Source of the DNA: Prorocentrum cordatum
Lineage: Eukaryota
Direction: 5' to 3'
Length of the DNA stretch: 64,000 bases
Assembly (NCBI GenBank): GCA_963575745.1
Contig: CAUYUJ010000205.1
Location: forward strand, 1 to 64,000
The notes under the pieces are model-generated. The model was not told where the DNA came from, did no database searches, and worked only from the letters and a program-made list of their open reading frames with translations. Made by a program: the position numbers and the translations under genes. Below are positions 10,277 to 58,790 of this stretch, piece after piece. The stretch's first letter is position 1, and the number at the start of each line of letters is the position of its first letter.

Positions 10277-11667
10277 TAACTCGTAGAGCTTCCCTTAGCT
10301 AGTTATAGCTGGAAGCTAAGAGTAATTCCGGCGCGCCCCACAGCTAGTTGGCTCGAAAAAAAAGAACTGAACTTTTGACAACTTTTGCTCGGTTGAAAAT
10401 TTTGTTCTCGAAATTTGACCATTCGTTAGAGCTCTAGTATTTTTTCCCGTGATATTCGACCTTATTCCCGCTCGCCATCTTGATCTCAGCTCGATCGGGT
10501 AACTTTGAAGGCCAAAAAGCACGGTGGCGGGACCGGCCGTTTCGAGTCATTTTGATATGCGCTGTCGGTATTTTGTACTGAACTCGAGCTGTAGGGCAGC
10601 TACAGAGCTGGCCAGCACAGCTATCGCACTCAGAATCAGCAGACGCGTTCGCCGGTTGAATTCAGAGGTCTGAACTCGGTCTGGCAGCCGAGCTAGGTCC
10701 GGAAACCTATTCGTATTATTCGAGTCAACTTGATACGCGTTGTCGGTATTTTCTACTTAACTCGAGCTGTAGGGCAGCTACAGTGCTGGTAAGCACGCCT
10801 ATCGCTCGCAGAATGATCAGGCGCGGTCGCCTGTTGAATTGATAGGTCTGAACTCGGTCTGCTAGGCGAGCTAGGTCCGCAAACCTATTCGTATTATTCG
10901 AGTGAGCTTGATACGCGTTGTCGGCATTTTCTACTTAACTCGAGCTGTAGGGCAGCTACAGTGCTGGTAAGCACACCTATCGCACTCAGAATAATCAGGC
11001 GCGTTCGCCTGTTGAATCGATAGGTCTGAACTCGGTCTGCTAGGCGAGCTAGGTCCGCAAACCTATTCGTATTATTCGAGTCCACTTGATACGCGTTGTC
11101 GGTATTTTCTACTTAACTCGCGCTGTAGGGCAGCTACAGTGCTGGTAAGCACACCTATGGCACTCAGAATAATCAGGCGCGTTCGCCTGTTGAATTCATA
11201 GGTCTGAAATCGGTCTGTTAGCCGAGCTAGGTCCGCAAACCTATTCGTATTATTCGTGTCAACTTGATACGCTTTGTCGGTATTCTCTACTTAAATCGAG
11301 CTGTAGGGCAGCTACAGTGCTGGTAAGCACGCCTATCGCACTCAGAATAATCAGGCGCGTTCGCCTGTTGAATCCAGAGCTCTGAACTCGGTCTGCTGCG
11401 CGATCTAGAATCACGAAACTGTTCGTATTCTTCCAGTCAGCTTGAGAGCTACTGTCGGCGTTCTGCACTTAGCTCGGGCTGTAGGGGGGCTGCAGGGCGG
11501 GTAATCAGAGGAATCGATTCGGAGACATCAGACGCCTCGGTCTGATGCTCGAGTTGGGCTGAAAAACTATTCGTTCTCTACAATTTTCTTCGACATTATA
11601 TGTTGTCAGGAAGCTCTACGAGTCCCCCGGCGGTAACAAAGGTTGACGGTTTACCGCCGGCGCCCAG
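10277..11667 (+). mobile_element. Family A element inserted in the head of another family A element
   Basis: Flanks CCCTTAGCAAG|TTATTGCTGGAAGC rejoin to the A head. Confidence 0.85.
10543..11460 (+). repeat. 178-bp tandem repeat internal to family A (example array)
   Basis: Equivalent positions at 10721, 10899, 11077 and 11255; the same unit recurs inside every long A copy. Confidence 0.9.
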
Positions 11668-13242: not shown

Positions 13243-14857
13243 TAACTCGTAGAGCTTCCCTTAGCTAGTTATAGCTGGAAGCTAAGAGTAAGTCCGGCGC
13301 GCTGGAGAGCTAGTTGGCTCAAAAAAAAAGAACTGAAGTTTTCACAACTTTTGGTCGGTTGAAAATTATGTTCTCGAAATTTGACAATTCGTTTGTGCTC
13401 TAGTATTTTTTCCCGTGATATTCGATCTTATTCCCGCTCGCCATCTTGATCTCAGCTCGATCGGGTAACTTTGAAGCCAAAAAGCACACTGGCGGGATCG
13501 CCGTTTCGAGTTATCTTGATACGCGTTGTCAGTATTTTGTACTTAACTCTAGCTAAACAACAACTACAGAGCTCGTAAGCACAGCTATCGCACTCAGAAC
13601 CATCAGGCGCGTTCGCCTGTTGAATCCATAGGTCTGAACTCGGTCTGCTAGCCGAGCTAGGTCTGCAAACCTATTCGTATTATTCGAGTGAACTTGATAC
13701 GCGTTGTCGTATTTTTCCTTTAACTCGAGCTGTAGGGCAGCTACAGTGCTGGTCAGCACGCCTATCGCACTCAGAATCATGAGGCGCGTTCGTCTGTTGA
13801 ATCCATAGGTCTTAACTCGGTCTCCCAGCTGAGCTAGGTCCGCAAACCTATTTGTATTATTCGAGTCAACTTGATACGCGTTGTCGGTATTTTCTACTTA
13901 ACTCGAGCTGTAGGGCTGCGACAGTGCTGGTAAGCACATCTATCGCACTCAGAATCACCAGGCGCGTTCGCCTGTTGAATCCATAGGTCTGAACTCGATC
14001 TGCTAGCCAAGCTAGGTCCGCAAACCTATTCGTATTATTCGAGTGAACTTCATACGCGTTGTTGGTATTTTGTACTTAATTCGAGCTGCAGGGCAGCTAC
14101 AGAGCTGATAAGCACACCTATCGCACCCAGAACTATTAGGCGCGTTCGCCTGTCGAATCTATAGGTCTGAACTCGGTCTGCTAGTCGAGCTAGGTCCGCA
14201 AACCTATTCGTATTATTGGGGTCATCTTGACAAACACTCGGTATTTTCTGTACTTAACTCGAGCTGTAGGCAGCTACAGAGCCTACAGTCACAGAAATCG
14301 ATTGAGAATTATCGGGCGCGTTTGTCCGTTGTATCGAGAGCTCTGAACTCCGCCTGCTGCCCGATCTAGGTTCGCGAAACTATTCCTATTGTCCGAATCA
14401 TCGCGAAAAGTGCTCTCAATTTTCTGCGCTGGAAGAGGGCTACAGTGCTGCGGGTCATAGAAATCGATTTGCACACATCGGGCGCGTTCGTTGGTCGATT
14501 CGAGAGCTCAGAACTTGGTCTGCTGCTCGAAACAGGTCTGCGAAACTATTATAAGATTCGAGTCATCCTGAGAGATGCTGTCGGTTTTCTGCACTTAACT
14601 CGGGCTGTAGGGGGGCTGCAGGGCTGGTAATCACATGAGTCGATTCGCAGACATCAGACGCGTCCGCCTGTCGCATTGAGAGGTCTGAACTCGGTCTGAT
14701 CAGACGCGTCCGCTTGTCGCATTCAGAGGTAAAAAAATATTCACTATGAGTCAGAACGTTGGTAGGTGCTCTCGGTTTTCTCAACTTAAGTCGAGCTTGG
14801 AAGCTCTACGAGTTCCCCGGCGGTAACCAAGGTTGACGGTTTACCGCCGGCGCCCAG
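13243..14857 (+). mobile_element. Family A element
   Basis: Flanks GACGGACC|TTTTGGTGAC rejoin to the A consensus. Confidence 0.85.
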
Positions 14858-16147
14858 TTTTGGTGACTTTTGGTCGGTTGAAAATTTTGTTCTCGAAATT
14901 TGACAATTCGTTAGAGCTCTAGTATTTTTTCCTGTGCTATTCGATCTTATTGCCGCTCGCTATCTTGATCTCAGCTCGATCGGGTATCTTTGAAGGCCAA
15001 AAAGCGTCCCGGCGGGAACGACCGTTTCGAGTCATCTTCATACGCGCTGTCGGTATTTTGTACTTAACTCGAGCTGCAGGACCAGCTACAGAGCTGGTAA
15101 GCACGCCTATCTCACTCAGAATCATCAGGCGCGTTCGCCTGTTGAACCCAGAGATCTGAACTCGATCTGCTAGCCGAGCTAGGTCCGCAAACCTATCCGT
15201 ATTATTCGAGTAAACTTCATACGCGTTGTCGGTATTTTGTACTTAACTCGAGCTGTAGGGCCGCTACAGTGCTGGTAAGCACAGCTATCGCGTTCAGAAT
15301 TATCATGCGCGTTCGCCTGTCGAATCCAGAGGTCTGGACTCGGTCTGCTAGCCGAGCTAGGTCCGCAAACCTATTCGTATTATTCGAGTCATCTTGATAG
15401 ACGCTCTCGGTTTTCTGTACTTAAGTCGAGCTGTAGGGCAGCTACATAGCTGGTAAGCACACCTATCGCATTCAGAATTATCACGCGCGTTCGTCTGTTG
15501 AATCCAGAGGACTGAAATCGGTCTGCTAGCCGAGCTAGGTCCGCAAACCTATTTGTATTATTCGAGTCATCTTGATAGACGCTCTCGGTTTCCTGTACTT
15601 AACTCGAGCTCTAGGGCAGTTGTGACAGAGATCGATGGGAAATCATCAGTCGCGTTCGTTTATTGAACGACGAGCTCTGAACTCGGCCTCCTGCCCGAGC
15701 TAGGTTCGCGAAACTATTCGTATTGTCCGAAGGATCTTACGTGCTCTCAATTTTCTGCAGCCAACTCGTGCTGCGGGAGAGCTACAGTACGCGGGTCTTT
15801 ACACATCAGACGCGTCTTTCGGTCGATTCCAGAGCCCGGAACTCGGTCTGCTGCTCGAACTAGGTTCGGGCTGTAGGGTGGCTCCATGGCTGGGAATCAC
15901 ATGAGTGGATTCGCAGACATCAGACGCGCCCGCCTGTCGCATTCAGAGGTCTGAACTCGGTTTGATACTCGAACTGGGTTGCGAAACTGTTTGTTTTTTT
16001 TTGATAGCGTTATCTTGAGAGCTCTGAAATCGCTTGGGCTTAAAAAATAGTCGTTCTTTGGAGTTTTTTTTCCACAGTATATATTGTCAGGAAGCTCTAC
16101 GAGTCCCCCGGCGGCAAGAAAGGTTGACGGTTTACCGCCGGCGCCCA

Positions 16148-17517
16148 TACCTCGTAGAGCTCTTCGGCATCGATGAGCTAGAGGAATTCCGGCGCGGGGT
16201 GGAGCTAGTAACTCGTAGAGCTTCCCTTAGCAAGTTATTAACTCGTAGAGCTTCCCTTAGCAAGTTATTTGCTGGAAAGCTTTAAGAGTAATTCGGAGCG
16301 CTGGAGAGCTAGTTGGCAAGAAAAATCTCGACGGACCTTTTGCTGACTTTTGGTCGGTTGAAAATTTGGTTCACAAAATTTGACCATTCGTTAGAGCTCT
16401 AGTATTTTCCCCATGATACTCGATCTTATTTCTGCTCGCCATCTTGATCTCAGCTCGATCGGGTAACTTTGAAGGCCAAAAAGCAGGCAGGCGGGAACAG
16501 CCATTTTGAGTCATCTTGATACGCGCTGTCGGTTTTCTTAAGATAACTCGAGCTTCAGGACAGCTACAGAGCTGGTCAGCACAGCTAATGCATTCAGAAT
16601 GATCAAGCGCGTTCGCCTGTTGAATCCAGAGGTCTGAAATCGGTCTGCTAGCCGAGCTAGGGTCGCAAACCTATTGGTATTGTTCGAGTTATCTTGAGAA
16701 GTGCTCTCGGTTTTCTGTACTTAAATCGTGCTGGGGGAGGGCTAGAGTGCTGCTAGTCACAGGAATCGAGTCCGAGACATCAGGCGCGTCCGTTCGTCGA
16801 ACCGAGAGCTCCGAACTCGGTCTGCTGCTCGAACGAGATCCGCGAAACTGTTGTATTATTCGAGTCATTCTGAGAGGTACTCTCGGTTTTCTGCACTTAA
16901 CTCAGGCTGTACTATGGTTTTTTTTTTTTTTAGGGGGCTGCAGAGCTGGTAATCACATGAATCGATCCGCAGACATGAGACGCGTCCGCCTGTCGCATTC
17001 AGAGGTCTCAACTCGGTTTCGTACTCGAGCTCGATTGGAAAACTGTTCGTTTATTTTGTTAGAGTCATCTTGAGAGGTCTATAATCGCTTGGGCTGAAAA
17101 AAAAGTCGTTCTCTGAAATTCTTTTACTCATTATATATTGTCAGGAAGCTCTACGAGTCTCCCGGCGGTAAGAAAGGTGACGGTTTTACGCGGCGCCCAG
17201 TTGGTCGACCCGGCCAGAAAGGACAAAGTGGTAACTTTTGGGTGGTTTTGCGATTTTTTGAAAGATATTTGACAATTAATTTTGAGAAAGCAGATTTTTC
17301 GCACCTGTAAACGACTATGAGCGCCTCTCTGTCTTAGTATGAGCTCTGTAGGCGCAGTTTTACTATCACAACACTTGGCGGAACCATCTTCATGTCGACA
17401 CGAAAAAAACAATTTTTCAGTTTTTCGAGAAATGCTTACTCCGAGCACTCTTACGCGTGAAATGAGCTCTACGAGGTTCCCGGCGGTGACCAGGTTGACG
17501 GTTCACCGCCGGCGCCA
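16148..17517 (+). mobile_element. Family B element containing nested family A sequence (to 17200)
   Basis: TACCTCGTAGAGCTC head, GAGCTCTACGAGGT tail; GGAGCTAG|TTGG rejoin across the insert. Confidence 0.75.
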
Positions 17518-20497
17518 TCGCGCTTTGCAGGGTCCCACGCAACGTCAACGGCGCCCCTGCAAGCGTCTTCTGCGAGGTTTCCAGCGTCCCGCGCATTGTT
17601 TCAGGCGGCCTGGCAGAGGTCCCCGTGCGGCATTCCGCGCTTGGCTTCGCTATCCGGGTTTTGGACGCTTACAAGTTCTTCCACTAGGCAGATCTTCCTC
17701 TCGCGCTTTGCAGGGCCCCACGCATAGTAACCGGCGCCCCTGCAAGCGTCTCCTGCGAGGTTTCCAGCGTCCCGCGCATCGTTTCAGGCGGCCTGGCAGA
17801 GGTCCCTGTGCGGCGTTCCGCGCTTGGCTTTGTTATCCGGGTTTTGGACGCTTACAAGTTTCCCGGAGAGCTCGCTGAGAGCGTTTAAGATTAGAAGCCG
17901 GACGGTGGTGGTGCCCGCCAGAAGCTCCTCCACGGCGGTCCACGTTCCCCGCAGCGACTCGCCTGAACCGGCAACGGGTCCGGGAGAGCCTCCGGCAAGC
18001 TTCCACGCGTGCCTGCACGCGCGGAGGCACGCATGGAGGCGTTTCGGCCAGCGCTTCGGAAGCTCTGCTGGGGAGCTTCCCAGAGATCCCCAGCACAGGT
18101 TTCCCGTAACTCGTAGAGCTTCTCTTAGCAAGTTATTGCTGGAAGCTAAGAATAATTCCGGCGCGCCCCACAGCTAGTTGGCTCGATTTTTTAGTTTTTA
18201 GCTTATTTCTGTTAGTTTTTTTTCTTTTCTTTCTTCTTTTTTTATTCGTTTAGCCCTTGTTTTATTCTTTTTTTTTTAGTTTTTAGTTTTTCAGTGATAG
18301 TTTTTTTATTTTTTTTCTTTTTTTTTTTTCTTTCTACTAGGTTTTCTAGTCTTTATTCTTTTTTTATAGTCTTGTGTTAGTCCTTTTTTCTTTCTTGTGT
18401 TATTTCTTTAGATTTTTTTCTTTTTTTTTTATCTGTTTAGTTGTGTTTCATTTTTTTTCTTTTAATTACTGTGTTTTATTCTTTTTTTTGTTTTAGTTTT
18501 TTTATTGTTTCTTTTTTAGACTAGTACTCTTTTTTTTTTTTCTTTAGTATTTAGTTGGCTCGAAAAATAACTCGTAGAGCTTCCCTTAGCTAGTTTCAGC
18601 TGGAAGCTAAGAGTAATTCCGGCGCGCCGGATAGCTAGTTGGCTTGAAAAAAAAGAACTCAACTTTTCACAATTTTTGGTCGGTTGAAAATTATGTTCTC
18701 AAAATTTGAACATTCGTTAGAGCTCTAGTATTTTTTCCCGTGATATTCGATCTTATTCCCGCTCGCCATCTTGATCCCAGCTCGATCGGATACCTTTTAC
18801 TGCGAAAAACCACACTGGCGGGATCGGCCGTTTTGAGTCATCTTGATACACGTTGTCGCTATTTTGTACTTAACTCAGTAGGACAGCTACAGAGTTGGTA
18901 AGCACAGCTATGGCACTCAGAATCATGAGCCGCGTTCGTCTGTTGAATCCACAGGTCTGAACTCTGTCTGCTAGCCGAGCTAGGTCTGCAAACCTATTCG
19001 TATTATTCGAGTCAACTTGATACGCATTTCGGTATTTTATACTTAACTCGAGCTGTAGGGCAGCTACAGTGTTGCTAAGCACACCTATCGCACTCAGAAT
19101 CATCAGGCGCGTTCTTCTGTTGAATCCACAAGTCTGAACTCGGTCTGCTAGCCAAGCTAGGTCCGCAAATCTATTCGTATTCGAGTGAACTTGATGCGCG
19201 TTGTTCTACTTAACTCGAGCTGTAGGGCAGCTACAGTGTTAGTAAGCACACCTATCGCACTCAGAATCATCAGGCGCGTTCTTCTGTTGAATCCATAGGT
19301 CTGAAGTCGGTCTGCTAGCCGAGCGAGATGCGCAAACCTATTCTTATTATTCGAGTCAACTTGATACGCGTGGTGGCTATTTTGTACTCCATTCGAGCTG
19401 CAGGGCAGCTACAGTGCTGGTAAGCACACCTATCGCACTCAGAATCATCAGGCGCGTTCGCCGCTTGACTCCAGAGGTCTAAGCTCGGTCCGCTAGCCGA
19501 GCTAGGTCCGCAAATCTATTCGTAGTATTCGAGCCATCTTGACAAACGCTCTCGGTATTTTTACAGTGCTGCGGGTCATACAAATCGATTTGCACACATC
19601 AGGCGCGTTCGTTGGTCGATTCGAGAGCTCAGAACTTGGTCTGCTGCTCGAAACAGGTCTGCGAAACTATTATATTTTTCGAGTCATCCTGAGAGATGCT
19701 CTCGGTGTTCTGCACTTAACTCGGGCTGTAGGGGGGCTGCAGGGCTTGTAATCACATGAGTCGATTCGCAGACATCAGACGCGCGCGCCTGTCGCATTGA
19801 GAGGTCTGAACTCGGTCTGATCAGACGCGTCCGCTTGTCGCATTCAGAGGTCAAAAAATATTCACTATGAGTCAGAATGTTGGTTGGTGCTCTCGGTTTT
19901 CAACTTTTGTCGAGCTTGGAAGCTCTACGAGTTCCCCGGCAGTAACCCCTGGCTCAAGCTCTACGAGTCTCCCGGCGGTAACCAGGGTTGAGGAAGCGGA
20001 GTTTACCTCCCGCTCTCCCTCGGCCTTGTCCCGTCGGGGGGCTCACTCGAGCTGCGTCGTGCAGTCAGGCAGCCTGCCCCTGGCCCGCCGCGCGGGGGGC
20101 GCGTGGCGATCGGGCCACTTCGGCGACGCCTGCACTTGTTTGCGGCATTGTTTGCACTTGTTTGCGAGCAGGCCGCCTGCACTTGTTTGCGGCATTTTGC
20201 CGCGTCGAGCTGGACTGGACGAGCCAGAGTCAATCGATCGATTTGGACCGCTGGGGAGCCAACTTCGGACATTGGGAGTGGGAGTATCTTGCCAGACAGG
20301 TTGGTAGAGCTCGACACGACGATAAGGATTCTCTAGTCGACATACCATCTGGGCCACCTGATCTCTCTCCCACTTTACCTCACCATCCTGTTGCCCCATA
20401 TAACTTTCATCAGGTGAGTGCACATCTCAAACGTACTCGAGAAGATCGATCGTTCTGTGCGAAGTGGAATATCCCTTGTAATATCTCAGACGGCAAG

Positions 20498-21546
20498 ATG
20501 GCTGCCTCATCAGCTGCTGCGGTCCCCGAGGTTTTCGCTATGGACGCCACTGATATGCCCGTTCCAGGAGCCAAGGAGGAGGAGGTCCCAGAGGGAAAAC
20601 GGGTCAAACTTCAGACGGTTGAAGGCCTCGAGGAGGCCATGACAAAGGGGATGGACAAGATCACGACGCTTGTTGCATCTCTGGGAGGTAAGATGACGGA
20701 GGGCTTCTAATCAACACATCGAAGCATCACGGATCTCGGCACCCAGCTCAATGCTCGTGTTGATTCGGTGGAGAAAAATGTACAGCAGGCGATGACGGAC
20801 ATAGATGCTATTACTAAGAAGGTTGAGGATCAGAGGCTCCAGATAATCCAGCTCCAGCAGGCTCCTGCAGGTGGGGCCCCCAGAGCAGGCACCTCTACGA
20901 CAGCGTCCTCGGCAGAAACTCGGCAGTCAGTGCAGAATTTCACCCCATCGTTCGTCGAGCTCAAAGGATGGGTGACGGACTGGAGGGATGCAGAGAAGCG
21001 TCAGGAGGAGATGTTATCACAGCAGGCGTTGAATTCACTGCTGAATGAGGTCCTGGCTGGAGAATGGTTCAGTGGTGTGAAGGAGTTTCTGGACCTGAAC
21101 CAATCCAAGAGGTTCAACACAGGTAGAGAGGCGTGGGGGTATTCGCGTGCTCGGCTCTATTTCCAGAATGGGGTTACCAGTGACCAGCTGTGTGATCTTC
21201 GTCGTCGACTCGTTGCCGCGATCGCCGACAACAAACTCCAGCACGCTCCCAGGGCCCTCAAGGTCCACGTGGAGCCCCCCCCCCCTGGAAGAAGCCCCAT
21301 CTGGATGCCGCTGGGATCTTGCAGGCCAAGTTCAAGAGTTTCAAGAAGCATCATTCGAATCTCAGGGCTGAGACGGGACCACCGATTACGTTCATGTGGG
21401 GCTCCAGTGACCACTTACCACCTCCAGGGAAGATTGTGGCCAAGTTCTCTCTGCAGAACGGCTGGGAGATCACTCGTGCAATGAATCAGCTTGAGCCAGG
21501 GATCAACATTGATGAGTTGCGAGCGAGGATTTCCAGTACGAACTAG
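20498..21546 (+). pseudogene. LINE ORF1 (coiled-coil-like N-terminus)
   Basis: MAASSAAAV... continues across a TAA at 20708-20710 and a frameshift in the C-run near 21280; heptad-like LEEAMTKGMDKITTLV...IDAITKKVEDQ; lies directly upstream of ORF2. Confidence 0.65.
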
Positions 21547-21576
21547 AGGTGCCACGACACCATTGCGTCAGGGAAT

Positions 21577-24500
21577 GTGCGTCGGGCAGGTGCAGAGAAC
21601 GGCCATGACATAATTAATTCACTACGTCGTTTAGATGTGGGACTCGCGGGGTTGTGCGAGTGTCAGTTCCTTTCAGTTCGTGATCTCAGCATGCGAGGTT
21701 ACACAATTTTTCGGAGTACTTGTCGGAAGGCTGCGGTGATTATGTCTAAGTCTTGGAGAGACTCGCTCAGAGCCACATATCGTGGCAAAGGTGTTGTCAT
21801 TTGTAGTTATTCTAGTGTTACGGTTATTGTTGCATATATGCCACATGAGAGTATCAATGCCCTTACGGAAGAACAGTATGAGCATGATGTGTATGAACAG
21901 ATATTGTTTGATATATCCCGAGTGCTTCGCACACATAGGTCTAAGTTCCCGAAGCAGCCGCAGGACCTGGTCTTCTTGACAGATGCTAACGTCGAACTCG
22001 AGCCAGATTCGGAGGTCAACGGCGTTAGAGTTACTGGATCAGGGCTTCTGGAGGCGTCTGGGATTGCTGGGGAGTCTACGGAGATTGATACTGGGATGGA
22101 GGAGGGAGCGGATGACGGCAACCCGTATATGACTCAAACAAAACGTGGTGCACGCAAAGCCAAACCTCATAGGCTTGTCTCGGGCTTCGAAATTCGACGG
22201 GCGTCTAGGTTGCAATCGATGAGGAGGGCCCTACTGGACTTCTGCGGGCTCTGGGGCATCAGGATGGAGAACACATTCGGGCAGAGGAGGGTTACTTTCA
22301 AATCAGGTACGGGGGTGAGAAGGTGCTCGACTATGTTGGTGTCAGCCGTCGTTTACACAGGCAGGAGCTCACCGTTGGCTGGATGCTGACTTCGGAAGTC
22401 GGCCACGCCTGGACGGAGCACCCTTGCAGCAGATACGAGCGTGCGCTGTCTGACCACGCCTGCATAGTTGTTCGCTTGTCTTGTGCACCGTCTGCGAAGA
22501 GACGGAACCAGCCTGCTCGAAAATTCATCCACTTGCAACCGGTGTCACAGCTGGAGTTTGCGAAGAACATGGACGATCGGGGCAGTCGTTACCGTGCTCT
22601 GTGCCAGGAATATGCTGACCCAGAGGATCGACAGGAGATGTTGGATACGCTGGGACCTGACCTCATAAAGGCCGCCGAGGAGACCCCCCAGAAAGATATC
22701 AATCCCAGGAATAATGTGCCAAAGAAATCCGAAATCCACTGGGCCGCCCAGGCAAGTAAACGTGAAGCTCTTCGTCGGGGGGATAGAGAGGAGGCTAAAC
22801 GGTGCTCAAAGATTGTGAGGAGAGAAAGAAGGAGGCTAGAGGCAAGAGTACAGAGGTGGAGGACGGAAATGAACACGAGGAGGAGGAGGAGGGCCAAGAC
22901 GGAGACGTTGATCCTGGCCAACGGGATGGAGTCTCAGAACCGCGAGGAGTGGGGGGACGAGATATTGGGGCACATGAAGTCTAAGGTGGAGGACCCCGAG
23001 GCCAGAGAGGTGACCCTGCGTGAGCTTCAGTCGCTGCGTGGTCTATGTTCGGGAAGCGGATCCTCAGAGGTGTTCTCGATGTCGCTCCTGCTGCGGGCGA
23101 GGGCGACGCTGTCCACGGGAAAGGCCCCAGGTCCCGACAACGTGACTGTCACGATGTTGAAACAGCTCTCGTGGGCATCTGTGCGACGTGTTCTGGTGAG
23201 CTTCCAAGGTGTGTATTCCAGAAGGTTATGTTGTCCCAACAGTTGGCGTCAACTAGCTGCCGCACTCATGCCAAAAGAAATGGACATACAACATTTGACA
23301 GATACACGTATGCTATGTCTACAGTCGTGTCTTATGTAATGGTACATGACATGTATTGTGATGTTGATTGAGAAGAGGATTGAGGAGCACCGACACTATG
23401 TATGCCTGTACGGATTCAGATCGGGACGCAAAACATCGGAAATCACAGCGTTGCCAAGAGGCTCAGCCAGCACTCCGCTGTCTGGGGCAAAGGAGACAGT
23501 TTGTGGCTTGCCAATCTTGATATCTTACAAGCTTTCGATAATGTTACTCCGTGCCTCGCCATGCGCTGTCTTCGTGCTCTTGACATACCTGCTGATCTCA
23601 TAGTGGCGTTGATTGAACCCATGATGGATAATCAGTGCGTGGCCAGCTTCGAGGGCATCGAGGCATCGTCAGCGGTCTATTGGGACAAATCTATTCGAAC
23701 GGGAGGAGTAGAGGGACCTATGATTTTCTGGCAGTTTCTATTGTACTCTGGAGAGATGTTATCGACAGATGGAGGCAAGAAACGCAGTACGGCATCAAAT
23801 TGGAAAATGATGAGCGCATGTTCAATGGTGAGCGTATGACCCACAGTTTCTGGGCAGATAATCTTTTGTTGTATGCGAAGACCCGCACTGACCTTGAGTT
23901 GATGGTGCGTGACATGAGTATCCCCCTGATGAATGCAGGAATGACCTGGAAGCCGAAATCTTTGATGTATATTTACTTTGGTGCGCCGCCTGGCATCCCG
24001 CCGTCCCCTGAGCAGGATATCCGTGTGCTGGTGCCGTCTAGTGACGCCGCTCTTGGGACCCGAGAAGTGGTCCTACCGCGTGTTCAAGCGTTTGAGATCC
24101 TGGGAGCCACTCTGGAGGAGACCTGGAAGGACCACTCGGACTCAGAGGCCATGCTCCAGAAAGCCCAGAGGATGTTCTTTGGGGAAATCGCGTATTACCG
24201 CTGTTCTGGGATTGACTTGGCTGAAAGATTTACTCGCTATCAAGCTAAAGTGATTGCTGCATTATTATTCAACTGTGAGGGCAGAACGCCCGACTATTCT
24301 ACCATTGCTGCTGTTCACTATTTTGAAGGCAGATGTCTAGCTATAATGTCAGGTATACGCAAGCGGAGAACTGAAGGCTGGTCTGAGTTTCAACGTAGGC
24401 GATACAAAGCGGGACGACAGAGTTTTGCTGGACTTGGATTCCGAAGTGCGGTGCAGATATGGATATTTCGTTGTTGGGATTGGGCTAAGGATGTCTCAGT

Positions 24501-25717
24501 TGCTGCAAGTATTCGTATGAGGAGATACACAACACACACAGAGGAGGAGGAGGGAGAGACGGTACCAAATCGGCGTCAGAGGAAAACTCGGGCGATGGCG
24601 GCGGCGGCGACTTCTCAAACATATCATGTATCTCAGATATCCCAGATGTCGAGTGGCTGTCGCCGGCGTACACCAGATGATCAGCCTGCCATACCTGAGG
24701 AGTCGGACATGTCACGTGAATGGATGATATCTAGGCTGGCCATGTTACATGGAAGGGGGAAGTGGACGGAACATCGTGACACATGTATTCTAGCAATGCC
24801 TGTAAAAGATAGGAAGCAGCTGACACGCATGAACATAGGCGGCCGCCCCCGTGGACATACTGCGTGGGACTGGTGCTTGTGCGATCTCTTTGGTTGTGAG
24901 TGGTACCTCTCATTCGACAGTTCCGCTGGGTCCCGTGAGAAATACTGCAAGCATTTGCTGACTGTGATTGGTATGCAACACTTGTTCGACTTGTTTGTTC
25001 TACCCAGGCCGCCTGGTGTGAGACATGTGAAGGCAGAGGAGGAGGAGGAGAGTGAGATGAATGAGAGGATGAGCAAACGTATTGCCGCAAATTTTGAGAA
25101 TGAAACGGAGTGGAGGTGTGAGAATATTGAGCGTCTTGGGATGGAGATCTTGGGAGATAGTAAGACTGTTGTAAACTGGATGTGTGGTGAGTGGCAGATT
25201 CGCAACAAGCAGTATGTACGACTGGTGGGAACACTACAAAATACGGTATCGATGCTGTCTGGATGGGGACTGACCTCACCTGCATCGGGACAGAATCTGT
25301 ATAAGCATTTCTTTCGTGAGGGTAATGAGCGTGCGGATAAATTGTCGTGGGAGGCCAGAGGTGGCCAAACTATTACTCGCTGGTTTGCATATGATAAGTT
25401 CCTCAGTACTCGTAAGACTGCTCTCCGTGGTGCATTCGATGGGGGTGTCAGTAATGAAGGATGTGGAGGTGGGTGGTGGCTTCAGATTGGCGTTGTAGGT
25501 AGGGGTTCCAGCGTGCAGGTTGATTTTCCCATCTCCTCCTCCTCCTCCCTCCTCTTCCTCCTGCACCAGCTCGCACAGCTTCCATTGGCACGATGTGGCC
25601 GAGGAGGCGATGAGCTTGCCTCCTGGTAGCACGGTAACCTGCTGTGAACTAGCTGCCTGCGCTGCCCTGACGAGAGCTGCTGCTAAGGTGGCGTGCGCTC
25701 TGCTACGACCTACCTAA
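21577..25717 (+). pseudogene. LINE ORF2: APE endonuclease, reverse transcriptase, RNase H-like domain
   Basis: APE: GLCE, TDAN, ENTF, LDYV, SDH. RT: KAPGPD, YGFR, LDILQAFDNV, IRTGGVEGP, WADN. RNase H: GDS, HFFREGNERAD, FDGG. Several frameshifts and a stop at 23337-23339. Confidence 0.9.
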
Positions 25718-26833
25718 GATGGTGGGGGCTCAGTTGCACTGCTCCGCCGATTCGGATTCGGATTCTAGTGGCGGACCGCAAACCGCAAAAAAACCACGGT
25801 TGACGGTTTACCGCCGGCGCCCAGCTTCGACGGAACTTTTGACAACTTTTGCTCGGTTGAAAATTTCGTTCTCAAAATTTGATAATTCGTTTGAGCTCTA
25901 GTATTTTTTCCCTTGATATTCGGTCTTATTCCCGCTCGCCATCTTGATCTCAGCTCGATCGGGTGAATATTACTATCGAAAAGCACTGTTGCGGGATCGG
26001 CCGTTTTGAGTCATCTTGATATGCGCTGACGGTTTTCTGAACATAACTCGAGCTCTAGGGCAGCTACAGAGCTGGTAAGCACAGCTAATGCATGCAGAAT
26101 GATCAGGCGCGTTCGCCTGTTGAATCCAGAGGTCTGAACTCGGTCTGCTAGCCGAGCTAGGGCCACAAACCTGTTCGTATTATTCGAGTGATCTTGACAG
26201 AAACTCTCGATTTTCTGCACTTACCTCGAGCTGTAGGACAGCTACAGAGCTGAAATTTAGGCACCAATTCAGAATCATCAGTTGCGTTTGTCTGTCGACT
26301 CCAGAGCTCTGAACTCGGCCTGCTGCCCGATCTAGAATCGCGAAACTATTCGTATCGTTCGAGTCGCTTGCGAGATAATGTCGGTTATCTGGACTTATCT
26401 CGGGCTGTAGGGGGGCTGCATGGCTGTTCGTTACTGGAATCGATTTGAAGACATCAGGCGCGTCCGCCTGTCGAATTCAGAGCTCTGAACTCTGTCTGCT
26501 GCCCGAACTAGTTCCGCGAAACTATTCCTATTGTTCGAGTCATCCTGAGAGATGCTGTCGGTGTTCTGCACTTAACTCGGGCTGTAGGGGGGCTGCAGGG
26601 CTGGTAATGACAGGAGTCGATTCGCAGACATCAGACGCGTCCGTCTGTCGCATTCAGAGGTCAAAAACTATTCACTATGCGTCAGATTGTTGGTAAGTGC
26701 TGTCTGTTTTCTTAACTTAAGTCGAGTTAGGAAGCTCTACGAGTCCCCCGGCGGTAACCAAGGTTGACGGTTTACCGCCGGCGCCCAGTTCCCAAAGGGT
26801 TTCTTCGCTCTCCGGGTTTTGGACGCTACCAAG

Positions 26834-28690
26834 TACCTCGTAGAGCTCTTCGTCATAACTCGTAGAGCTTCCCTTAGCAAGTAATTGCTGGAAGCTAAGA
26901 GTAATTCCGGCGCGCCCCAGAGCTAGTTGGCTCGACAAATCTCGACGGAACTTTTGACAACTTTTGGTCGGTTGAAAATTTTATTCTCGAGATTTGACAA
27001 TTCGTTAGAGCTCTAGTATTTTTCCCGTGATATTCGATCTTATTCCCGCTCGCCATCTTGATCTCAGCTCGATCGGGTGAATACTACTGTCGAAAAGCAC
27101 TGTGGCGGGATCGGTCGTTTCGAGTCATCTTGATACACGGTGACGGTTTTCTCAAGATAACTCGAGCTTCAGGTCAGCTACAGAGCTGATCAGCACAGCT
27201 TATGGATCCAGAATGATCAGGCGCGTTCGCCTGTTGAATCCAGAGGTCTGAACTCGGTCTGCTAGCCGAGCTAGGTGCGCAAACCTATTCGTATTATCCG
27301 AGTCATCTTGACAGGCGCTCTCGGTTTTTTGTACTTACTCGAGCTGTAGGACACCTACAGAGCTGATATTTACAGGAACTGATTCAGAATCATCAGTTGC
27401 GTTTGTCTGTCGAATCTAGAGCTCTGAACTCGGCTTGCTGCCCGATCTAGAATCACAAAATTATTCGTATTGGTCGACTCATCTTGAGAAGTGCTATCGG
27501 TCTTCTTCACTCAACTCGCGCTGCGGGGGGCTACAGTTTGTTGTCACAGGAATCGATTCAAAGAGATCAGACGTATCCGCCTGTCGAATCCAGAGCTTTG
27601 AACTCGGTCTGCTGCCCGAACTAGGTCCGCATAATTATTGTATTGTTCGAGTCATCCTGAGAGGTGCTGTCGGTTTTTCGCACTTAACTCAGGCTGTAGG
27701 GGTGGTAATGAGGAGTCGATTCGCAGACATCAGACGCGTCCGCCTGTCGCATTCAGAGGTCAAAAAATATTCACTATGAGTCGGAATGTTGGTAGGTGCT
27801 GTCGGTTGTGTCAACTGAAGTCGAGCTAGGAAGCTCTACGAGTCCCCGGCGGTAACCAAGGTTGACGGTTTACCGCCGGCGCCCAGTCGATGAGGTAGAG
27901 GAATTCCGGCGCGGGGTGGAGCTAGTTGGCCCACCTGGCCGAGGCGGACAATGTGGCAACTTTTGGGTGGTTTTGCGATTTTTTGAAAGATATTTGACCA
28001 TTTATTTTAAGAAAGCAGATTTTTCGCACCTGTAGACGACTATGAGGGCCTCTGCGTCTTGATATGAGCTCTCTAGATGCATTTTTACTATGAAAACACT
28101 TGGAGGAACCAACTTTATGTCGACATCAAAAAATCATGTCTTCTCTTTTTCGAGAAATGCTTCCAGCAGCCCTCTCTTTTGATGCTGAGCACTCTTAGGC
28201 GTGTCAGGAGCTCTACGAGGTTCCCGGCGGTGACCAGGTTCCCGGCGGTGACCAGGTTCCCGGCAGCTTCCCCCTGGACTTGTGCAGGGCGGATGGCACC
28301 CTGGAGTTGGCCGCAGAGGTTTCATGATCCCTAGCCACTGCGCGATCACACAGGCTGAGTTGGCAGCTGCACATTCTCTTCTCAATGGCATTGCCGAGAT
28401 GTGTATACACGTACAACTTGGCAGGTGATTGTTTGTGTATTATATCTGCACAGCTCCGCTGTTGTAAGATACATGCTTAGCCCCACTGTTTCTTTGATGT
28501 GTGTATATTCCTGTGCAGCTACGCTGTTGTATCATATCTGCACAGCTACGCTGACTTGTATATCGCACAGCTCCGCTGTTAGTGCTTAGGTTGCCTGTAG
28601 GTAATCCTACCGCTGGCCCTGCCCCCTAAGGGGGCTCGAATCGGGCCCCGCAGACCGCAGACCAGGTTGACGGTTCACCGCCGGCGCCAG
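26834..28690 (+). mobile_element. Family B element hosting a family A copy (26856-27886) and a truncated LINE
   Basis: CTCTTCGTCA|TCGATGAG rejoins the B head; tail hairpin split at about 28265-28660. Confidence 0.8.
28265..28660 (+). mobile_element. 5'-truncated relative of the 19950-25791 LINE
   Basis: Last coding segment CAITQAELAAAHSLL...stop (28339-28428) parallels STVTCCELAACAAL; tail CCGCAG-ACCGCAG-ACC; same insertion point. Confidence 0.65.
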
Positions 28691-28712
28691 TTCTGGGGCG
28701 CTGGAGAGCTAG

Positions 28713-38985: not shown

Positions 38986-39746
38986 TCTTTGGACATAATA
39001 TATGGCAAGGAAGCTCTACGAGTCTCCCGGCGGTAAGAAAGGTTGACGGTTTACCGCCGGCGCCCAGTGCTTTGGGGAAGTCCCTAGGGCTTTTCAGAAA
39101 AGCTTCCCAGATTTCCAGATTACCGGCGACAGGAGCTGAGAGGAATTCCTCGTAAAGCTCTTCGGCAAGATGAGCCAAGAGGAATTTGGGCGCAGGGTGG
39201 AGCTAGTTGGCAGACCCGACCAAAATGGACAATGTGGGAACTTGGGGTCGGTTTTTGTATCTCTGTGCAAAATTTGAAAATTAGTTTTGAGAACCGGTAT
39301 TTTTCTCACGTGCAGTGGGTTATGCCGCGTCTGCCAGTCCAATTCTCAGGTCCGTAGCTTCAATATTACTATCAAACACTTGAGGGAACCGACTTTGGAA
39401 AAACATTAAAGATCGTAATTTTTCGAGTTTCTCAGATCACCTTGAGAAAGCTTCTCTCATGTGTTCCAAGCAGCGCTGCGCGATCAAAGAGCTCTACGAG
39501 GCTGCCAGCGGTAACCTTGTTGATGGTTTACCGCCGGCTCCCAGTATCTCGTAGAGCTCTTCGGCCAGATGAGAGGAATTCGGGCGCAGGGTGAAGCTAG
39601 AAACTCGTAGAGCTTCCCTTAGCTAGTTGCTGGGAGCTTAAGAGTAATTCCGGCGCGATGGAGAGCTGGCCCTGGAGCCACAGTAATGTCGTCAAACCCT
39701 GCACGCACACGTCCTACACAGTGCGCGTGTGTCCGCGTGGTGAGCA

Positions 39747-45958: not shown

Positions 45959-48320
45959 TCTTGGCCTTTTTATAAATATTCCCAGGCCATCTTCTCGACT
46001 CGACCCACCCCGCCGTTACCTTCCTCTCACCCTCCCTCACTCGCCCTCTCTATCTCTCTCGTCTCTGGCTGTTCTCGCCCTTTTGCAACCTCCATCCTCC
46101 GTCCACCGCCCGCAATCTTCCCCCTTCCTAACTTCCTTGTTTGCATCAATGCACGTCCCATCCCCTATCTGGAATTAGCTGGAACTCTAACTCCCCTCCC
46201 AATTCCCCCCCTCCTCGCCGCCCATGGCCCCTTCCCGACTTTGCCCTGCCGCCCCGCCCGCCGCAGGCGGTGGCATGCAAGGGGGCGCGCAAGCTGAAGG
46301 CCAGGCCGAGCGATTCGGACTGCTGCGACTTCGATATGCTGCCGCTGAAAAGCACGCCCGCCCATCCGAAGACGACGGCTGAGGACAGATTGGAGAGGGC
46401 CCCCCTGAGGGGAGGGACGGGAAGAAGGAGAAGGAGGAGGAGGAGAAGAAGGAGGAAGAGACAACGAGGACGGGGGCGGTTGGGGAAGAGGACGAGGAGG
46501 GGAAGGCAGAAGCGAAGGGGGGATGAGGGGGGGAACGAGGAGGAGGAGGAGGAAGAGGATGGGGGGGGGGAAAAAGGGGGAGGAGGACGCGGAGGAGGAG
46601 GATGAGGATGAGGATGAGGAGATGATGATGATGATGGTGATGAGGAGGGAGGAGGAGAAGGAGGAGGAGGAGGAGGAGGAGGAGGAGGAGGAGGAGGAGT
46701 CGAGGAGAAGGAGGAGGAGGCGGAGGAGGAAGAGGAGGAGGAGGGGGAGGAGGAGAGGAGGAGGAGGAGGAGGAGGAGGGGGGGGGGAGGACGAGGCTGG
46801 GAGAGGAGGAGGAGGAGGAGGATGAGGGGAGAAGGGGAGGAGGAGGAGGAGGAGGAGGAGGAGGAGGAGGAGGAGGAGGAGGAGGAGGAGGAGGAGGAGG
46901 AGGAGGAGGAGGGAGAGGAGGAAGAGGAGGAGGAGGAGGAGGAGGAGAAGGAGATTGATGAGGAGGACGGCGCCGACGCCGACGACGAAGATGAGGATGA
47001 TAATGCGGAGGAGAAGGAGGAGACAGAGGAGGAGGCTGACGAGTATGAGGAAGAGCAGGAGGATCAGGAGGAGGAGTAGGGGGAGGATGAGGAGGAGGAG
47101 GAGGAGGATGAGGCGAATGATGAGAATACTGAGAGGGAGGGCAATGAGGAGGAGGATGAGGAGGAGGAGGATGAGAAGAAGGAGGATGAGGAGGAGGAGG
47201 AGGTGTAGGAGCAAGATGGGACGGTGGAGGAGTTGGAGGACCAGGATGAGATGGAAAGGGAAGAGGAGGAGGATGAGGAGGATGCTCGCACCGAAGGGCT
47301 CACGGTGTAGCCATCGCCGCGCCTTCGAGCCGAGCGGCCGCGCGGGGCGCCCGCGGGGCCGCGCATGGACGAGGGCGAGGCGCTTGCGTTCGCGCTGCCC
47401 AAGCAGCTGCCAGCAGGGGCGGTGCCCAAGCATCCGCTCTTGTCGCCAACGCAGCCAGCGGGGCCGCCGCCCGCGCACCTGCTGCCCCAGCAACACCAGC
47501 AGCAGCATGGGCAGCAGCGCCAGCAGCAGCAGCACCAGCAGCAGCCGATTGTTGTACCACCGAAGTTTCACAAGCCGCTGCTGCGGCCGCGGCGCTCCGC
47601 CGCCCCGCCTGCCAACGAGTTCGCCGATGCGGCCGCCTGCGTCGACGCCGGCGCGGCCGGCGACGTCGGCGCCGCCGCCGCCGCCGAGGTCGCGGCCGAC
47701 AGCGCCGCCGCCGGCGCCGAGCCAGCGGCGGGGGCCGCGGCTGCCGCGGCTGCAGGGGCAGCGGGCGCCGAGGAGACAGGCGCTGACGCTGCTGACGCTG
47801 ACGGCGCTGATGACGCCGCTGACATCAGTGAGGAGGAGCGGGTCGCGGCCGCTGCCCTTGCCGCGGCCCACGCCGCCTTGCAACGGACAGATGAGCTCCT
47901 CACTGGTGCCATCGCGAACTACCGCACGCTGTGCGAGACAGAGGTCAGCACGCGAGACCTTCTCGAGCAGGCGGAGGCAGCCTACGACGCGGCCCACGAA
48001 GCGTACATGCAAGCATTCGAGGGCTGCAGGCTCGGGAGGGCCGACGGCGAGTCGGCAGTTGCGCGGCGCGAAGAGACGTTCCGCGCGCACCGCGCAGCGC
48101 GGGGTGCTTTGGCGGCGGCCCTCGACGAAGGACCACCCCAGGGCCAGAAAACGGCCAAGGGAGAGGATGAAGGAGGAAGGGGGAGAGGATTGGGGGACGG
48201 GTGAGGAGGCGAACCAGTGAAGAGGAGGAGGAGGAGGAGAAGGAGGAGGAGGAAGAGGAGGCATGCTTATGCGAAGCCGTCGTCGTGGTCGTAGTCGTCG
48301 TCGTCGTCGTCGGCCTCGTT

Positions 48321-56327: not shown

Positions 56328-58790
56328 CGAACGAACGAACGAACGACGCGCTCCGTCGGCCCAGAGGCCGTCCCGAGACGGGTGGCGCGGTGGCGCCTCA
56401 GCGCCCTCAGTTCTGGTACTCGACGGTGCATTCCAGCCAGCGTTTGCACTGCCCCCCACGCCGCCGGGCGCGGTTCTCTGGCTCCCAGTTAAATGCAATC
56501 TGTGCCCACGACTCTGTGTCAGTACTCATGCGTCCAAGCCAACGTACTGCGGCTTTGCGGTGTTCTGCAACCCAATCACGTAGATTCAGACGCGCAACAC
56601 GGTGTTCAGCATCATGCGTAGCCCTCCTCACCCAATCGACCCATGGCTACAGATCCGCATCACAAGCGTGCGAAGCATCGCGGGAAAGAAGACGACGACG
56701 ATGACGATGTAGTCGTTGACTGTCGGTGCTCTCTGCGCCTGGGCATGCGGATAATCATTCTTAGCATTGTCCTTTGTGTTCGACGAATACTGTCCTCGAG
56801 TTCGCGCATCAGCACCCACGTGGCCGAGCCGCACTGGCAGAGCACCGTGTCAGTTACTGAGCTGTCAAACAACCGGAGACTCGCATTTAATGGATAGCTT
56901 CTGTCCGTGAGCTTTGCGCGGTGCTGCATGGAACACTTCCAAGAACAACGAATGCGATTGTTGGTCTCCACTTCATGGGGCCGGTCGAAACCCACCATTC
57001 TGCCAAGATGTTTCATGCTTCCGCTATCAGGAGCAATATCAATGCCTATGTCGCCAATCATGACCTTCGGCTCCTTCGGTCTGCCTGTGCCCCTGGTCGC
57101 GTTGCTTAGAATCTTTGTTTTGTCTGGGTGTAGTTCGAGTCCAACTCTGGCCGCGGCGCCTTTGATGTCCTGGAACATGGTCTTGAGCTACCTCAGCGTG
57201 CTGGACACGAGGAGACTGTCATCCGCAAAACGTAAATTTGTCAGCTGTGTGTGCTCCGTGAATCCCATCTTCAAGCCCCAACCTTTCCCAAGCCATTTCT
57301 GCTTCACTTCGCTCACAACGTCTTCTATGAGACAATTGAACAACAAAGTGCTCAGCGGGTCCCCTTGTTTCGTTCCACGCTGGATCTCGTAACGCTTGCT
57401 CAGGCAATCAATGCGTATTCTGGCTGTTTGTCCAGTGTAAAGCTTCTGACGCAGAGATATGTATCCGGATGGAACGCCGTGTCGGGCAATCGCGCGCCAC
57501 AAAGAACGGTGTTCAACACAATCAAATGCCTTTTTGAAGTCCAGGGCGGCGAGCCACAAGCCACACTGCCATTCGTGGCATTTCTCCTGAAGCATAGACA
57601 CAGTAAACATGTGGTGCACGGTGCTGAGGCCTTTCCTGAAACCCGCCTGGTCCATACTTTGGCGCTTGTCCAATATAGGGCACAATCTGTAGTATAATAA
57701 CTTTGCAAACAGTTTGTAAAGCAGGGGGATGATGATCATCGGGCGGTAATTGTTGGCATCAGCGACGTCGCCGGCCTTATGCAGTACAGTCACAGCCGAT
57801 TTCTTCCACGATTTCGGCGGGGACGCCGACGGTGAAATTATATTGTTGCGCAGATCCAAAAGTAAAGCTTCGACAGTAACACCAGCATTTTTCAGCATCT
57901 CTGCACATACCCCGTCTTGATCGCAGCACTTACCGTTCTTGAGACTCGCCAACTGCTCGCGCAGTTCTTCAATGGTAAAAGGTTGAATTGTCTCTGCTTC
58001 CAAATCGTTTACATCAGAATCTGGTTCATGTGCTGCCGCAGTGGTACTGTACAGCTTGGCGTAAAAATCGGCAAACACGTCTGCGATGCCCTGCCGGTCA
58101 GTATGAATAGCGCCCGTGCTGTCCGTTATGTGCGTGATCAGCTTCTTTTTCTTGATGGTCTTCAGCTTCGGTATGCTTCTTGTGTCCCTGAATGCTGTAA
58201 GGACCTCCTGGATTCGTGTAGTGGCCTGGCTCCTTCTGACACGCCGGACCTGTTTACGGATGTTCTTGCTCAAAGTTGTTCTTTCTGCTCCTGTCATAGC
58301 TTGCGTCTCCTTCCGTTGCGAAATAAGCCGCTGCAGCTCCATCTCGTCCCTTGAAGGTTGAACTTGACATTTCTGAGCCGCTTGGGCACTGGGAGCAGAA
58401 CCAACCATGATCTTCGTGATAACCTCACAATCGGTATCGGGATCCCCAGTGCTTTGATATCTCTGCTCCTCGTTTGGGTCTCCTCGGTAAACCGGCGTGC
58501 ATCAACAGATTTCCAAGGAACTTGCTGTACGTGGTCCTTCTTTTTGGCATTGTGCTTCGGCTTACTCGCAAAACGCATTTTGAGCAGCACTGGTTTGTGG
58601 TCTGATCCCATGTTCAAAACGCCAGTCGAACAAGAATCGAGTACACGAGGCAAAAGCTGAAAGTCCACCAATATATAATCAATTTGTCGCTCGTTGCCGT
58701 TCGCCCCACGGTGCGTGAACATATAGGGATGCCGCTTTGGAAAGAAAGTGTTCGTGATGCTGAAACGTTCTGTGCAAGGTGGCAAAGGTG
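56328..58790 (-). mobile_element. 5'-truncated RTE-like LINE (APE C-terminus + RT), decayed
   Basis: ITNTFF, QIDYILV, SDHKPV; NYRP, QAGFR, LDFKKAFD, GTKQGDPLS, LRFADD; possible (GTTC)n tail near 56328-56346; stop at 57188-57190 and frameshifts. Confidence 0.9.

Follow-up and report, generated by a model that had tools for sequence, protein, structure and literature searches.

Why do the only two retroelement inserts recognised in a long pile of short repeats sit at the same step of the same kind of terminal hairpin? The question is raised by a 64,000-nt stretch of eukaryotic DNA, positions 1 to 64,000 of the Prorocentrum cordatum contig CAUYUJ010000205.1 (assembly GCA_963575745.1), which we call the window. 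Short non-coding repeats, almost all of them in + orientation, form a pile over its positions 1-40,000 and carry a palindrome (left arm, loop and right arm) close to their 3' end; we refer to these repeats as hosts. Two long interspersed nuclear elements (LINEs), one full-length and one truncated at its 5' end, each part the arms of such a palindrome, and a sequence-only reading of the window had proposed that LINEs of this kind target the 3' hairpin loop of rolling-circle-like elements. Our analysis makes it probable that a LINE clade with a putative apurinic/apyrimidinic endonuclease (APE), a reverse transcriptase and an RNase H-like domain prefers, perhaps to the point of specificity, a single step in the 3' palindrome of Helentron/HINE-type elements as its insertion site.

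A regular expression combining the sub-terminal repeat with the left arm gave 29 matches in the window: 25 host 3' ends (24 on the + strand, one on the −), one LINE leader and three spurious matches. Twenty-three of the 25 ends are uninterrupted, and two are split, at 19947/25794 and 28236/28661:

19918..19947, + strand: left part of split host 3' end 1 (loop type AACCA), with the repeat GGAAGCTCTACGAG at 19918-19931 and a left arm ending ...GGCAGTAACC; it matches five intact copies up to AACC.
25794..25825, + strand: right part of split host 3' end 1, with CCAC, the loop GGTTGACGG, the right arm TTTACCGCCGG and the terminal CGCCCAG(C).
28207..28236, + strand: left part of split host 3' end 2 (family B), with GGAGCTCTACGAG and the left arm GTTCCCGGCGGTGACCA, ending ...GGCGGTGACCA.
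28661..28691, + strand: right part of split host 3' end 2, with ACCA, GGTTGACGG, TTCACCGCCGG and CGCCAGT.

Alignment with intact copies of their own subfamilies (five for the first end, four for the second) places both breaks at one step, after ...GGT(A/G)ACC at the junction of left arm and loop. Both inserts lie in host orientation and in two different host families, and the arms that they separate are now 5.8 kb apart in one host and 0.43 kb in the other. The proposal that the two share a loop position, with both breaks at the ACC/A step, is thereby borne out, and the strings quoted in support of it all lie where it had placed them. Occupancy differs by loop type, with 2/11 ACCA loops interrupted and 0/14 of the others (AAGAAA, AACAAA and others). 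The host arms beside both inserts are near-consensus, so these are separate, fairly recent insertion events.

What kind of element is being split? Every copy has the same 3' layout over a 90-nt context: GGAAGCTCTACGAG, 4-6 nt, CCGGCGGT(A/G)A.., a loop ending ..GGTTGACGG, TT(T/C)ACCGCCGG and CGCC(C)AGT, after which the DNA is unrelated between copies. The palindrome, CCGGCGGTAA(CC)...(GG)TTTACCGCCGG, measures 10-12 bp and lies 8 nt from the 3' end; with up to 3 mismatches allowed, the window contains 23 occurrences of the 20-mer GGTTGACGGTTTACCGCCGG from its right half, where 0 would be expected. The sub-terminal repeat GGAAGCTCTACGAG ends about 46 nt before the host 3' end (CCCAGT), and its reverse complement, the 14-nt sub-terminal inverted repeat CTCGTAGAGCTTCC, marks the host 5' end, where a second 5' type bears CTCGTAGAGCTCTTCGG instead. 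Both 5' markers come 2-3 nt past the point at which the likeness between flanks ends, (T)AA or (T)AC. Host insertion flanks are compatible with ...T|T... (reconstructed, for example, as GCTAGT|TGGCAAG), with no flanking duplication seen and the termini ambiguous by one base.

An excerpt of PMC4067079 gives the traits of HINEs and Helentrons as sub-terminal inverted repeats of 12-15 nt, set 2-4 nt in from the 5' end and 38-60 nt in from the 3' end, together with a palindrome whose distance to the 3' end is 8-35 nt, tandem repeats in the centre and insertion into T-rich or TT sequence. As far as this excerpt goes, the window hosts agree with HINEs/DINE-1 (non-autonomous Helentrons) and Helitron2 in sub-terminal repeats, palindrome and tandem repeats, have flanks compatible with a TT preference, and differ from them in that no Rep/helicase partner lies inside the window. 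No such gene was found among window open reading frames (ORFs) of at least 220 aa, and host class membership is therefore argued from DNA structure alone. Judged by their architecture, the pile hosts are rolling-circle elements of Helentron/HINE type, in line with the sequence-only reading; the literature checked held no description of this host family.

Several host subfamilies share one palindrome with differing loops: AAGAAA in 9 ends, AACAAA in 3, AACCAA in 6, GACCA in 5 and other loops in 2. Host copies follow one another head to tail, or have inserted into the 5' region of copies with the same orientation (e.g. 16141-16151 and 39537-39548). Internal tandem repeats of 177-178 bp, in 2.6-5.1 copies, occupy 10541-11445, 13505-14390, 15026-15619, 18835-19542 and 26008-26659, among others; the satellite-carrying HINEs of oysters and mosquitoes likewise hold internal tandem repeats.

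A metagenome scan with the palindrome right half returned 11 loci, eight of them host-type ends whose left arm is intact. In these eight, which come from other samples (L001, L003, L004, L005, L007, L009, L010 and L011), the sub-terminal repeat GCTCTACGAG, both arms and the (A)ACCA loop have changed very little, in contrast to the element bodies, which are unrelated. As diverged subfamilies thus keep the same repeat, arms and loop, the palindrome is strongly conserved across host families. Of the remaining loci, L008 is cut at the contig start, L002 has a diverged left side and L006 is unrelated.

The junctions of the two inserts bear on how the LINEs arrived. The tails, (ACCGCAA)2 plus A5 in the full LINE and (CCGCAGA)2 in the short insert, are followed by (A)CC A, which is also present at the same place in the intact loop. 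Tail repeats of 7 nt do run into the target ACC, as had been noticed earlier, and since the intact loop has the same ACC, the last ACC can be read either as tail or as target. Pairing of the RNA 3' end with the nicked bottom strand would be expected to leave such a tail, running into ACC. The target duplication is short, ACC(A) for the full LINE and up to ACCAGGTT for the short insert. Both 5' junctions are untidy, with 8 extra nt in the full LINE and 1.6 extra 18-nt units in the short insert.

These same features allow us to weigh a mechanism driven by structure or lesions, in which no sequence-specific nuclease is needed and the LINE integrates at a cruciform or stalled fork, through a nick or single-stranded loop left by cellular processes or host transposition. 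The site does lie exactly at the stem/loop boundary of a stable palindrome (DNA folds of -14.9 and -17.1 kcal/mol, z -2.6 and -3.4), and untidy 5' junctions would suit such a route. However, both insertions chose the same nucleotide and the same arm despite a near-mirror site on the other arm, their tails end in ACC, which matches the target, and only ACCA-type loops are occupied. Moreover, from general knowledge of HUH transposons, a Rep cut would be expected at the element end, 30 nt away. We consider this explanation unlikely.

A trace of a further event is found at the 5' end of the full LINE. The extent first given for this element, 19918-25824, does contain the LINE and also takes in host sequence; the LINE proper runs from 19992 to 25793, after a filler and a leader:

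19948..19955, + strand: 8-nt filler CCTGGCTC at the 5' junction, resembling neither host nor LINE.
19956..19991, + strand: 36-nt leader, AAGCTCTACGAG-TCTCCC-GGCGGTAACC-AGGGTTGA, a further left arm with its loop, derived from a different host subfamily.
19992..20498, + strand: LINE 5' untranslated region (UTR), with a 22-nt repeat in three copies at 20127-20194.
20499..21546, + strand: ORF1, with no Pfam family; residues 303-481 of the relative P0039 align to 20759-21292; its reading frame is interrupted by a TAA at 20708-20710 and shifted in a C-run near 21276.
21577..25717, + strand: ORF2, with a putative APE-like endonuclease (about 21643-22390), a reverse transcriptase (about 22760-24510) and an RNase H-like C-terminal domain (about 24800-25717).
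25718..25774, + strand: LINE 3' UTR, by sequence reading.
25775..25793, + strand: LINE tail, (ACCGCAA)2 plus A5, preceded by ...GGCGG.

Untemplated or template-jump bases such as the filler are common at LINE 5' junctions. The leader is 35/36 identical, through GGTTGA, to the left arm and loop of a third host subfamily (copy at 37.27 kb) and is unlike the host arm that flanks the LINE here. We compared the window with reads and contigs of four sequencing runs (run labels cited: X1, X6, X8 and X20). In 4/4 runs, contigs that match up to 19991 continue into CGGTTTACCGCCGG, and intact hosts with the leader's loop variant therefore exist. The parent of this LINE probably occupied a palindrome of this kind, with 11 nt duplicated (ACCAGGGTTGA), and its RNA would have begun at least 36 nt upstream in the host. 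The leader would then record a third event at the same site, and it hints that LINE transcription starts in the host. The start of the LINE body (GGAAGCGGAGTTTACCTCCCGC) was also considered as a decayed right arm and rejected, as 162 of 2000 shuffles reach the score.

How often would two inserts coincide by chance? With uniform insertion over 40 kb, the second insert would fall in the same 3-nt slot and orientation with P ~0.001, and anywhere in the 46-nt terminal region with P ~0.014. Because chance co-location has a probability of only ~0.001, site-directed insertion is the best reading. A short nuclease preference is nevertheless a fairer null than uniform insertion, and the result depends on the word assumed: both inserts would lie in hairpins by chance with a probability of ~0.002 for ACCA, ~0.011 for (A/G)ACCA and ~0.13 for T(A/G)ACCA. 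For the last of these, the pile holds 29 unoccupied sites (9 in hairpins) and 2 occupied ones, giving 11/31 in hairpins and (11/31)^2 ~0.13.

A preference for a short word of 4-6 nt, e.g. (A/G)ACCA, combined with regional accumulation would make the hairpin location partly luck. The longest of the three words accommodates this with its chance of ~0.13, whereas the 5-nt and 4-nt words bring it down to the values just given. In addition, the leader indicates a third hairpin-resident copy, and the behaviour is common to two diverged LINE families. We judge partial luck of this kind to be quite unlikely.

That two families are involved follows from the short insert, which consists of the following parts:

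28237..28266, + strand: 5' junction with 1.6 extra copies of the 18-nt unit GGTTCCCGGCGGTGACCA (2.6 with the host's own; 28218-28264, period 18, 100% match).
28267..28660, + strand: 5'-truncated LINE of the second family, with the last ~55 codons of ORF2 (...AITQAELAAAHSLL...), a stop at 28426-28428, the 3' UTR and the tail (CCGCAGA)2.

The 18-nt unit is flanked by GGTT on either side in the host, and the tail was located by Tandem Repeats Finder at 28648-28663. Among 150 listed relatives of the LINE protein, 11 align their C-terminal end to the end of the short insert ORF at E<0.001 (best 1e-7, in a small search). This ORF2 C-terminal homology makes the short insert a true relative, in keeping with the earlier reading of both inserts as LINEs of a putative APE type. 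In nucleotide sequence, only the tail is common to the two (21/2000 shuffles reach the score). Homologous ORF2 ends with likeness in nucleotides confined to the tail indicate two families of one clade and, therefore, two separate events. A hint from MAFFT that the LINE 3' ends mimic the host left arm was rejected, since 1849-2000 of 2000 shuffles reach the local scores.

It might still be argued that one ancient insertion produced a composite that was multiplied by the rolling-circle machinery and then diverged, which would account for the shared site and orientation. Against this, the LINE parts are alike only in the tail and yet the host arms are near-identical to the family consensus, the inserts are unlike in length and in 5' junction, host mobilisation should be blocked once the palindrome is split, and the full copy differs by just 12 letters and 2 gaps over 3.1 kb from one contig of another sample. 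A single origin is thus highly improbable. A misjoining of LINE and host repeats during assembly is hardly credible at all: among the contigs listed from the four runs none bridges the 3' junction, and the window copy's frame changes lie in homopolymer runs, but the host halves fit to the nucleotide with the expected short duplication in both cases, and a misjoin is unlikely to do so twice.

When relatives (11 of the 150 listed) were compared with the window by tblastn, only 20759-25651 (+) and 56762-57979 (−) were matched. This agrees with the assertion that the pile contains only two retroelement inserts, as the second match belongs to a third, unrelated LINE elsewhere in the window. That LINE-like element extends over about 56350-60000 on the minus strand, with RVT_1 at 6.6e-24 in the ORF 57188-58501 and a (CGTT)n tail near 56350; it sits in the GC-rich part, outside the pile, and not in a palindrome.

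A number of points weigh against targeting of the palindrome. Only two insertions and one inferred from the leader were examined. The data show a strong site preference, in which aiming at the hairpin and aiming at a 6-7-nt word mostly found there are inseparable. A LINE-occupied end was present in 0 of the 11 metagenome right-half loci. Run contigs that carry the LINE stop at the end of the A-run, at 25793 in X1 and at 25792 in X6, so that there are at least two different continuations after it; these could be variants in A-run length or in the loop, or equally unrelated flanks. Finally, the window ORF over the endonuclease region (21547-22389) has no Pfam match, aligning instead to residues 6-145 of the relative P0002, and the endonuclease part of the relatives' profile matched nothing in the PDB.

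The coding capacity of the full LINE was characterised through its relatives. Among 1.84 billion representatives, phmmer found 270 at E<=0.001 and 17 at E<=1e-30; the full-length ones measure 1263-1660 aa, and tblastn shows the full LINE to be colinear with them. In the window copy RVT_1 scores E 1.8e-5 and 25 bits, under the Pfam cut-off of 29.6, while it is found in 6/9 relatives tested, above the cut-off in P0002, P0008 and P0009. A profile of six relatives matches R2 reverse transcriptases in the PDB at E 1.2e-11 (P0002 alone gave no PDB match), a database that among LINEs holds only the R2 and human L1 types. The window reverse transcriptase also has a FWADN box. On these matches, the enzyme predicted for the full LINE is a reverse transcriptase of the type without long terminal repeats (non-LTR). 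For the nuclease, Exo_endo_phos was seen in 1/9 relatives (P0038, 23.6 bits against a cut-off of 24.5); Atlas neighbours of the LINE protein bear the same family, which we take as a lead only, and a terminal SDHA motif is visible by eye.

The C-terminal domain resembles RNase H in an unusual arrangement. Between 24800 and 25717, and in all relatives inspected, the acidic motifs run GDS..W, REGNxRAD, FDGG..GxGWW, T(V/I)TxAEL and then the stop, that is, third, fourth, first and second relative to RNase H, instead of the canonical D-E-D-D order. In alignment A3, which includes the relatives P0002, P0008 and P0014, D79, D139 and D173 are invariant and E215 is near-invariant. The profile of six relatives matches RNase H residues 72-137 (E 9.9e-5) through its first half only. 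Likewise, in a domain model with a predicted local distance difference test score of 90.2, RNase H chains match just the first half (Z 3.4-4.0), with identities of 18-25%, the highest in the list. The model gave no sequential full-length structure match, Foldseek returning only meaningless low-TM matches. From motifs and model, the domain appears to work like, or to derive from, RNase H, and is not a canonical member. In the literature listing, no non-LTR element was reported to have a permuted RNase H.

The window copy of the LINE is interrupted, with a TAA in ORF2 at 23337-23339 and frame changes near 22316, 23445 and 23723 and in the (CTC)n run at 25533-25562. The full LINE was detected in 4/4 runs with a likeness of 90-100%. 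At 20708 a C stands in all four runs, and at 21276 X1, X8 and X20 include contigs that are shorter by 2 nt; in the runs, 23337 is an A and a single base is added at each of 22316, 23445 and 23723, the (CTC)n run having been skipped as a repeat. Better-preserved copies, lacking the stops and frame changes of the window copy, therefore exist elsewhere. Several of the frame-breaking differences are in homopolymer length, and some might be assembly errors and not decay. Empty hairpins are abundant in the same runs, and summed contig depth there is far higher over host ends than over the LINE, depth not being the same as copy number.

Words of the full LINE occur in contigs from 20 public runs of 16 studies; three of the runs are organism-labelled, and most are metagenomes from marine, estuarine and fresh water. 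The carrier is therefore a widespread planktonic eukaryote. The relative P0011 (201 aa), from a marine protist transcriptome set, is 97-100% identical in its C-terminal part to the end of the window ORF2, so the LINE 3' part is transcribed somewhere. A metagenome scan with a single protein yielded 298 pattern matches and no relative, hence no further LINE copies, and viral contigs and prokaryote genome contigs likewise contained no LINE relative. A protein search with the frame through tail and hairpin found no predicted ORFs across other junctions. No ribozyme or other RNA family reached the gathering score at the LINE 5' end or in the window, where one match was at chance level (E 0.8).

Beyond 40 kb the window is GC-rich, low-complexity, genic-looking DNA, in which ORFs of at least 220 aa (40-64 kb) were without any Pfam family. 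It contains a very long, imperfect (AGG)n tract at 46426-47282 (285 units, 71% match) and many further triplet repeats at 45-50 kb.

Is there a precedent for a LINE that lands in another transposon? According to an excerpt of PMC6719617, the DNA transposon Tx1D of Xenopus laevis has a specific site into which the APE-type LINE Tx1L inserts, and the precedent of Tx1 cited at the outset is thus a real one. To the extent that this excerpt describes it, Tx1L is like the window LINEs in landing on a defined sequence in another multicopy transposon, with an APE-type nuclease expected. The window LINEs differ in that their host is a rolling-circle element and their site the stem/loop boundary of a terminal palindrome, a presumed cis-signal; in addition, the motifs of the RNase H-like C-terminal domain in their clade are in permuted order.

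Other comparisons can be made with site-specific LINEs of the R1 clade, such as R1 itself in 28S ribosomal DNA (rDNA) and TRAS/SART in telomeric repeats. The likeness would lie in a sequence-specific APE nuclease, in 3' ends or tails that overlap the target so that the RNA can pair, and in multicopy 'safe' targets; the window target differs in being another transposon, where theirs are host genes or telomeres. For the reverse transcriptase of the window clade, the best solved-structure match comes from R2, one of the co-transcribed rDNA LINEs, and the leader suggests transcription from the target unit, as in R2. In contrast, R2 has a restriction-like endonuclease C-terminal to the reverse transcriptase and a 5' ribozyme, while the nuclease region of the window LINE is N-terminal and APE-like (from P0038 and colinearity) and no ribozyme family was found at its 5' end. 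Site-specific LINEs are known to target rDNA, telomeres, small-RNA genes and microsatellites, and a single case concerns a cut-and-paste transposon (Tx1D). The full-text literature, a scope that leaves out subscription journals and Repbase, held no report of a LINE targeting a rolling-circle terminal palindrome.

A possible mechanism for site-directed insertion can be outlined. The target step would be the point in the top strand ...CGGT(A/G)|ACCA... at which the left arm meets the loop. The LINE endonuclease may nick the bottom strand opposite this step, and the RNA 3' end, (ACCGCAR)n plus ACC, could then pair with the freed ...TGGT-3' and prime reverse transcription, as tails that run into ACC would suggest. 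Judging from the junctions, the top strand would be cut 3-11 nt further on, giving the short duplications ACC(A), up to ACCAGGTT and the implied ACCAGGGTTGA. The 5' junction is closed untidily, as seen from the 8-nt filler in one copy versus the 18-nt unit duplications in the other. Insertion parts the palindrome arms, and from this separation we infer that the end signal of the host copy is probably lost, i.e. that the LINE disables the host termination hairpin. For the LINE, a palindrome that stays near-unchanged across diverged host families may offer many harmless landing sites.

A wider picture, which we put forward only tentatively and regard as doubtful, is that the life cycle of this clade is wholly tied to Helentron-type transposons: a LINE with a circularly permuted RNase H that reads the termination palindrome, settles where arm and loop meet, is transcribed inside its host and inactivates the copies that it enters. 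The term 'hyperparasite', used in the sequence-only reading, overstates what is seen, which is the use of another transposon as a landing site. If true, the relationship would nonetheless be one of a transposon-on-transposon parasite that may curb the spread of rolling-circle elements. It would also add a new class of LINE target, itself a functional cis-signal of another mobile element. Such a pair would provide a natural system in which to study how APE nucleases read palindromic or hairpin sites, how transposons compete in genomes and what the conservation of a palindrome demands.

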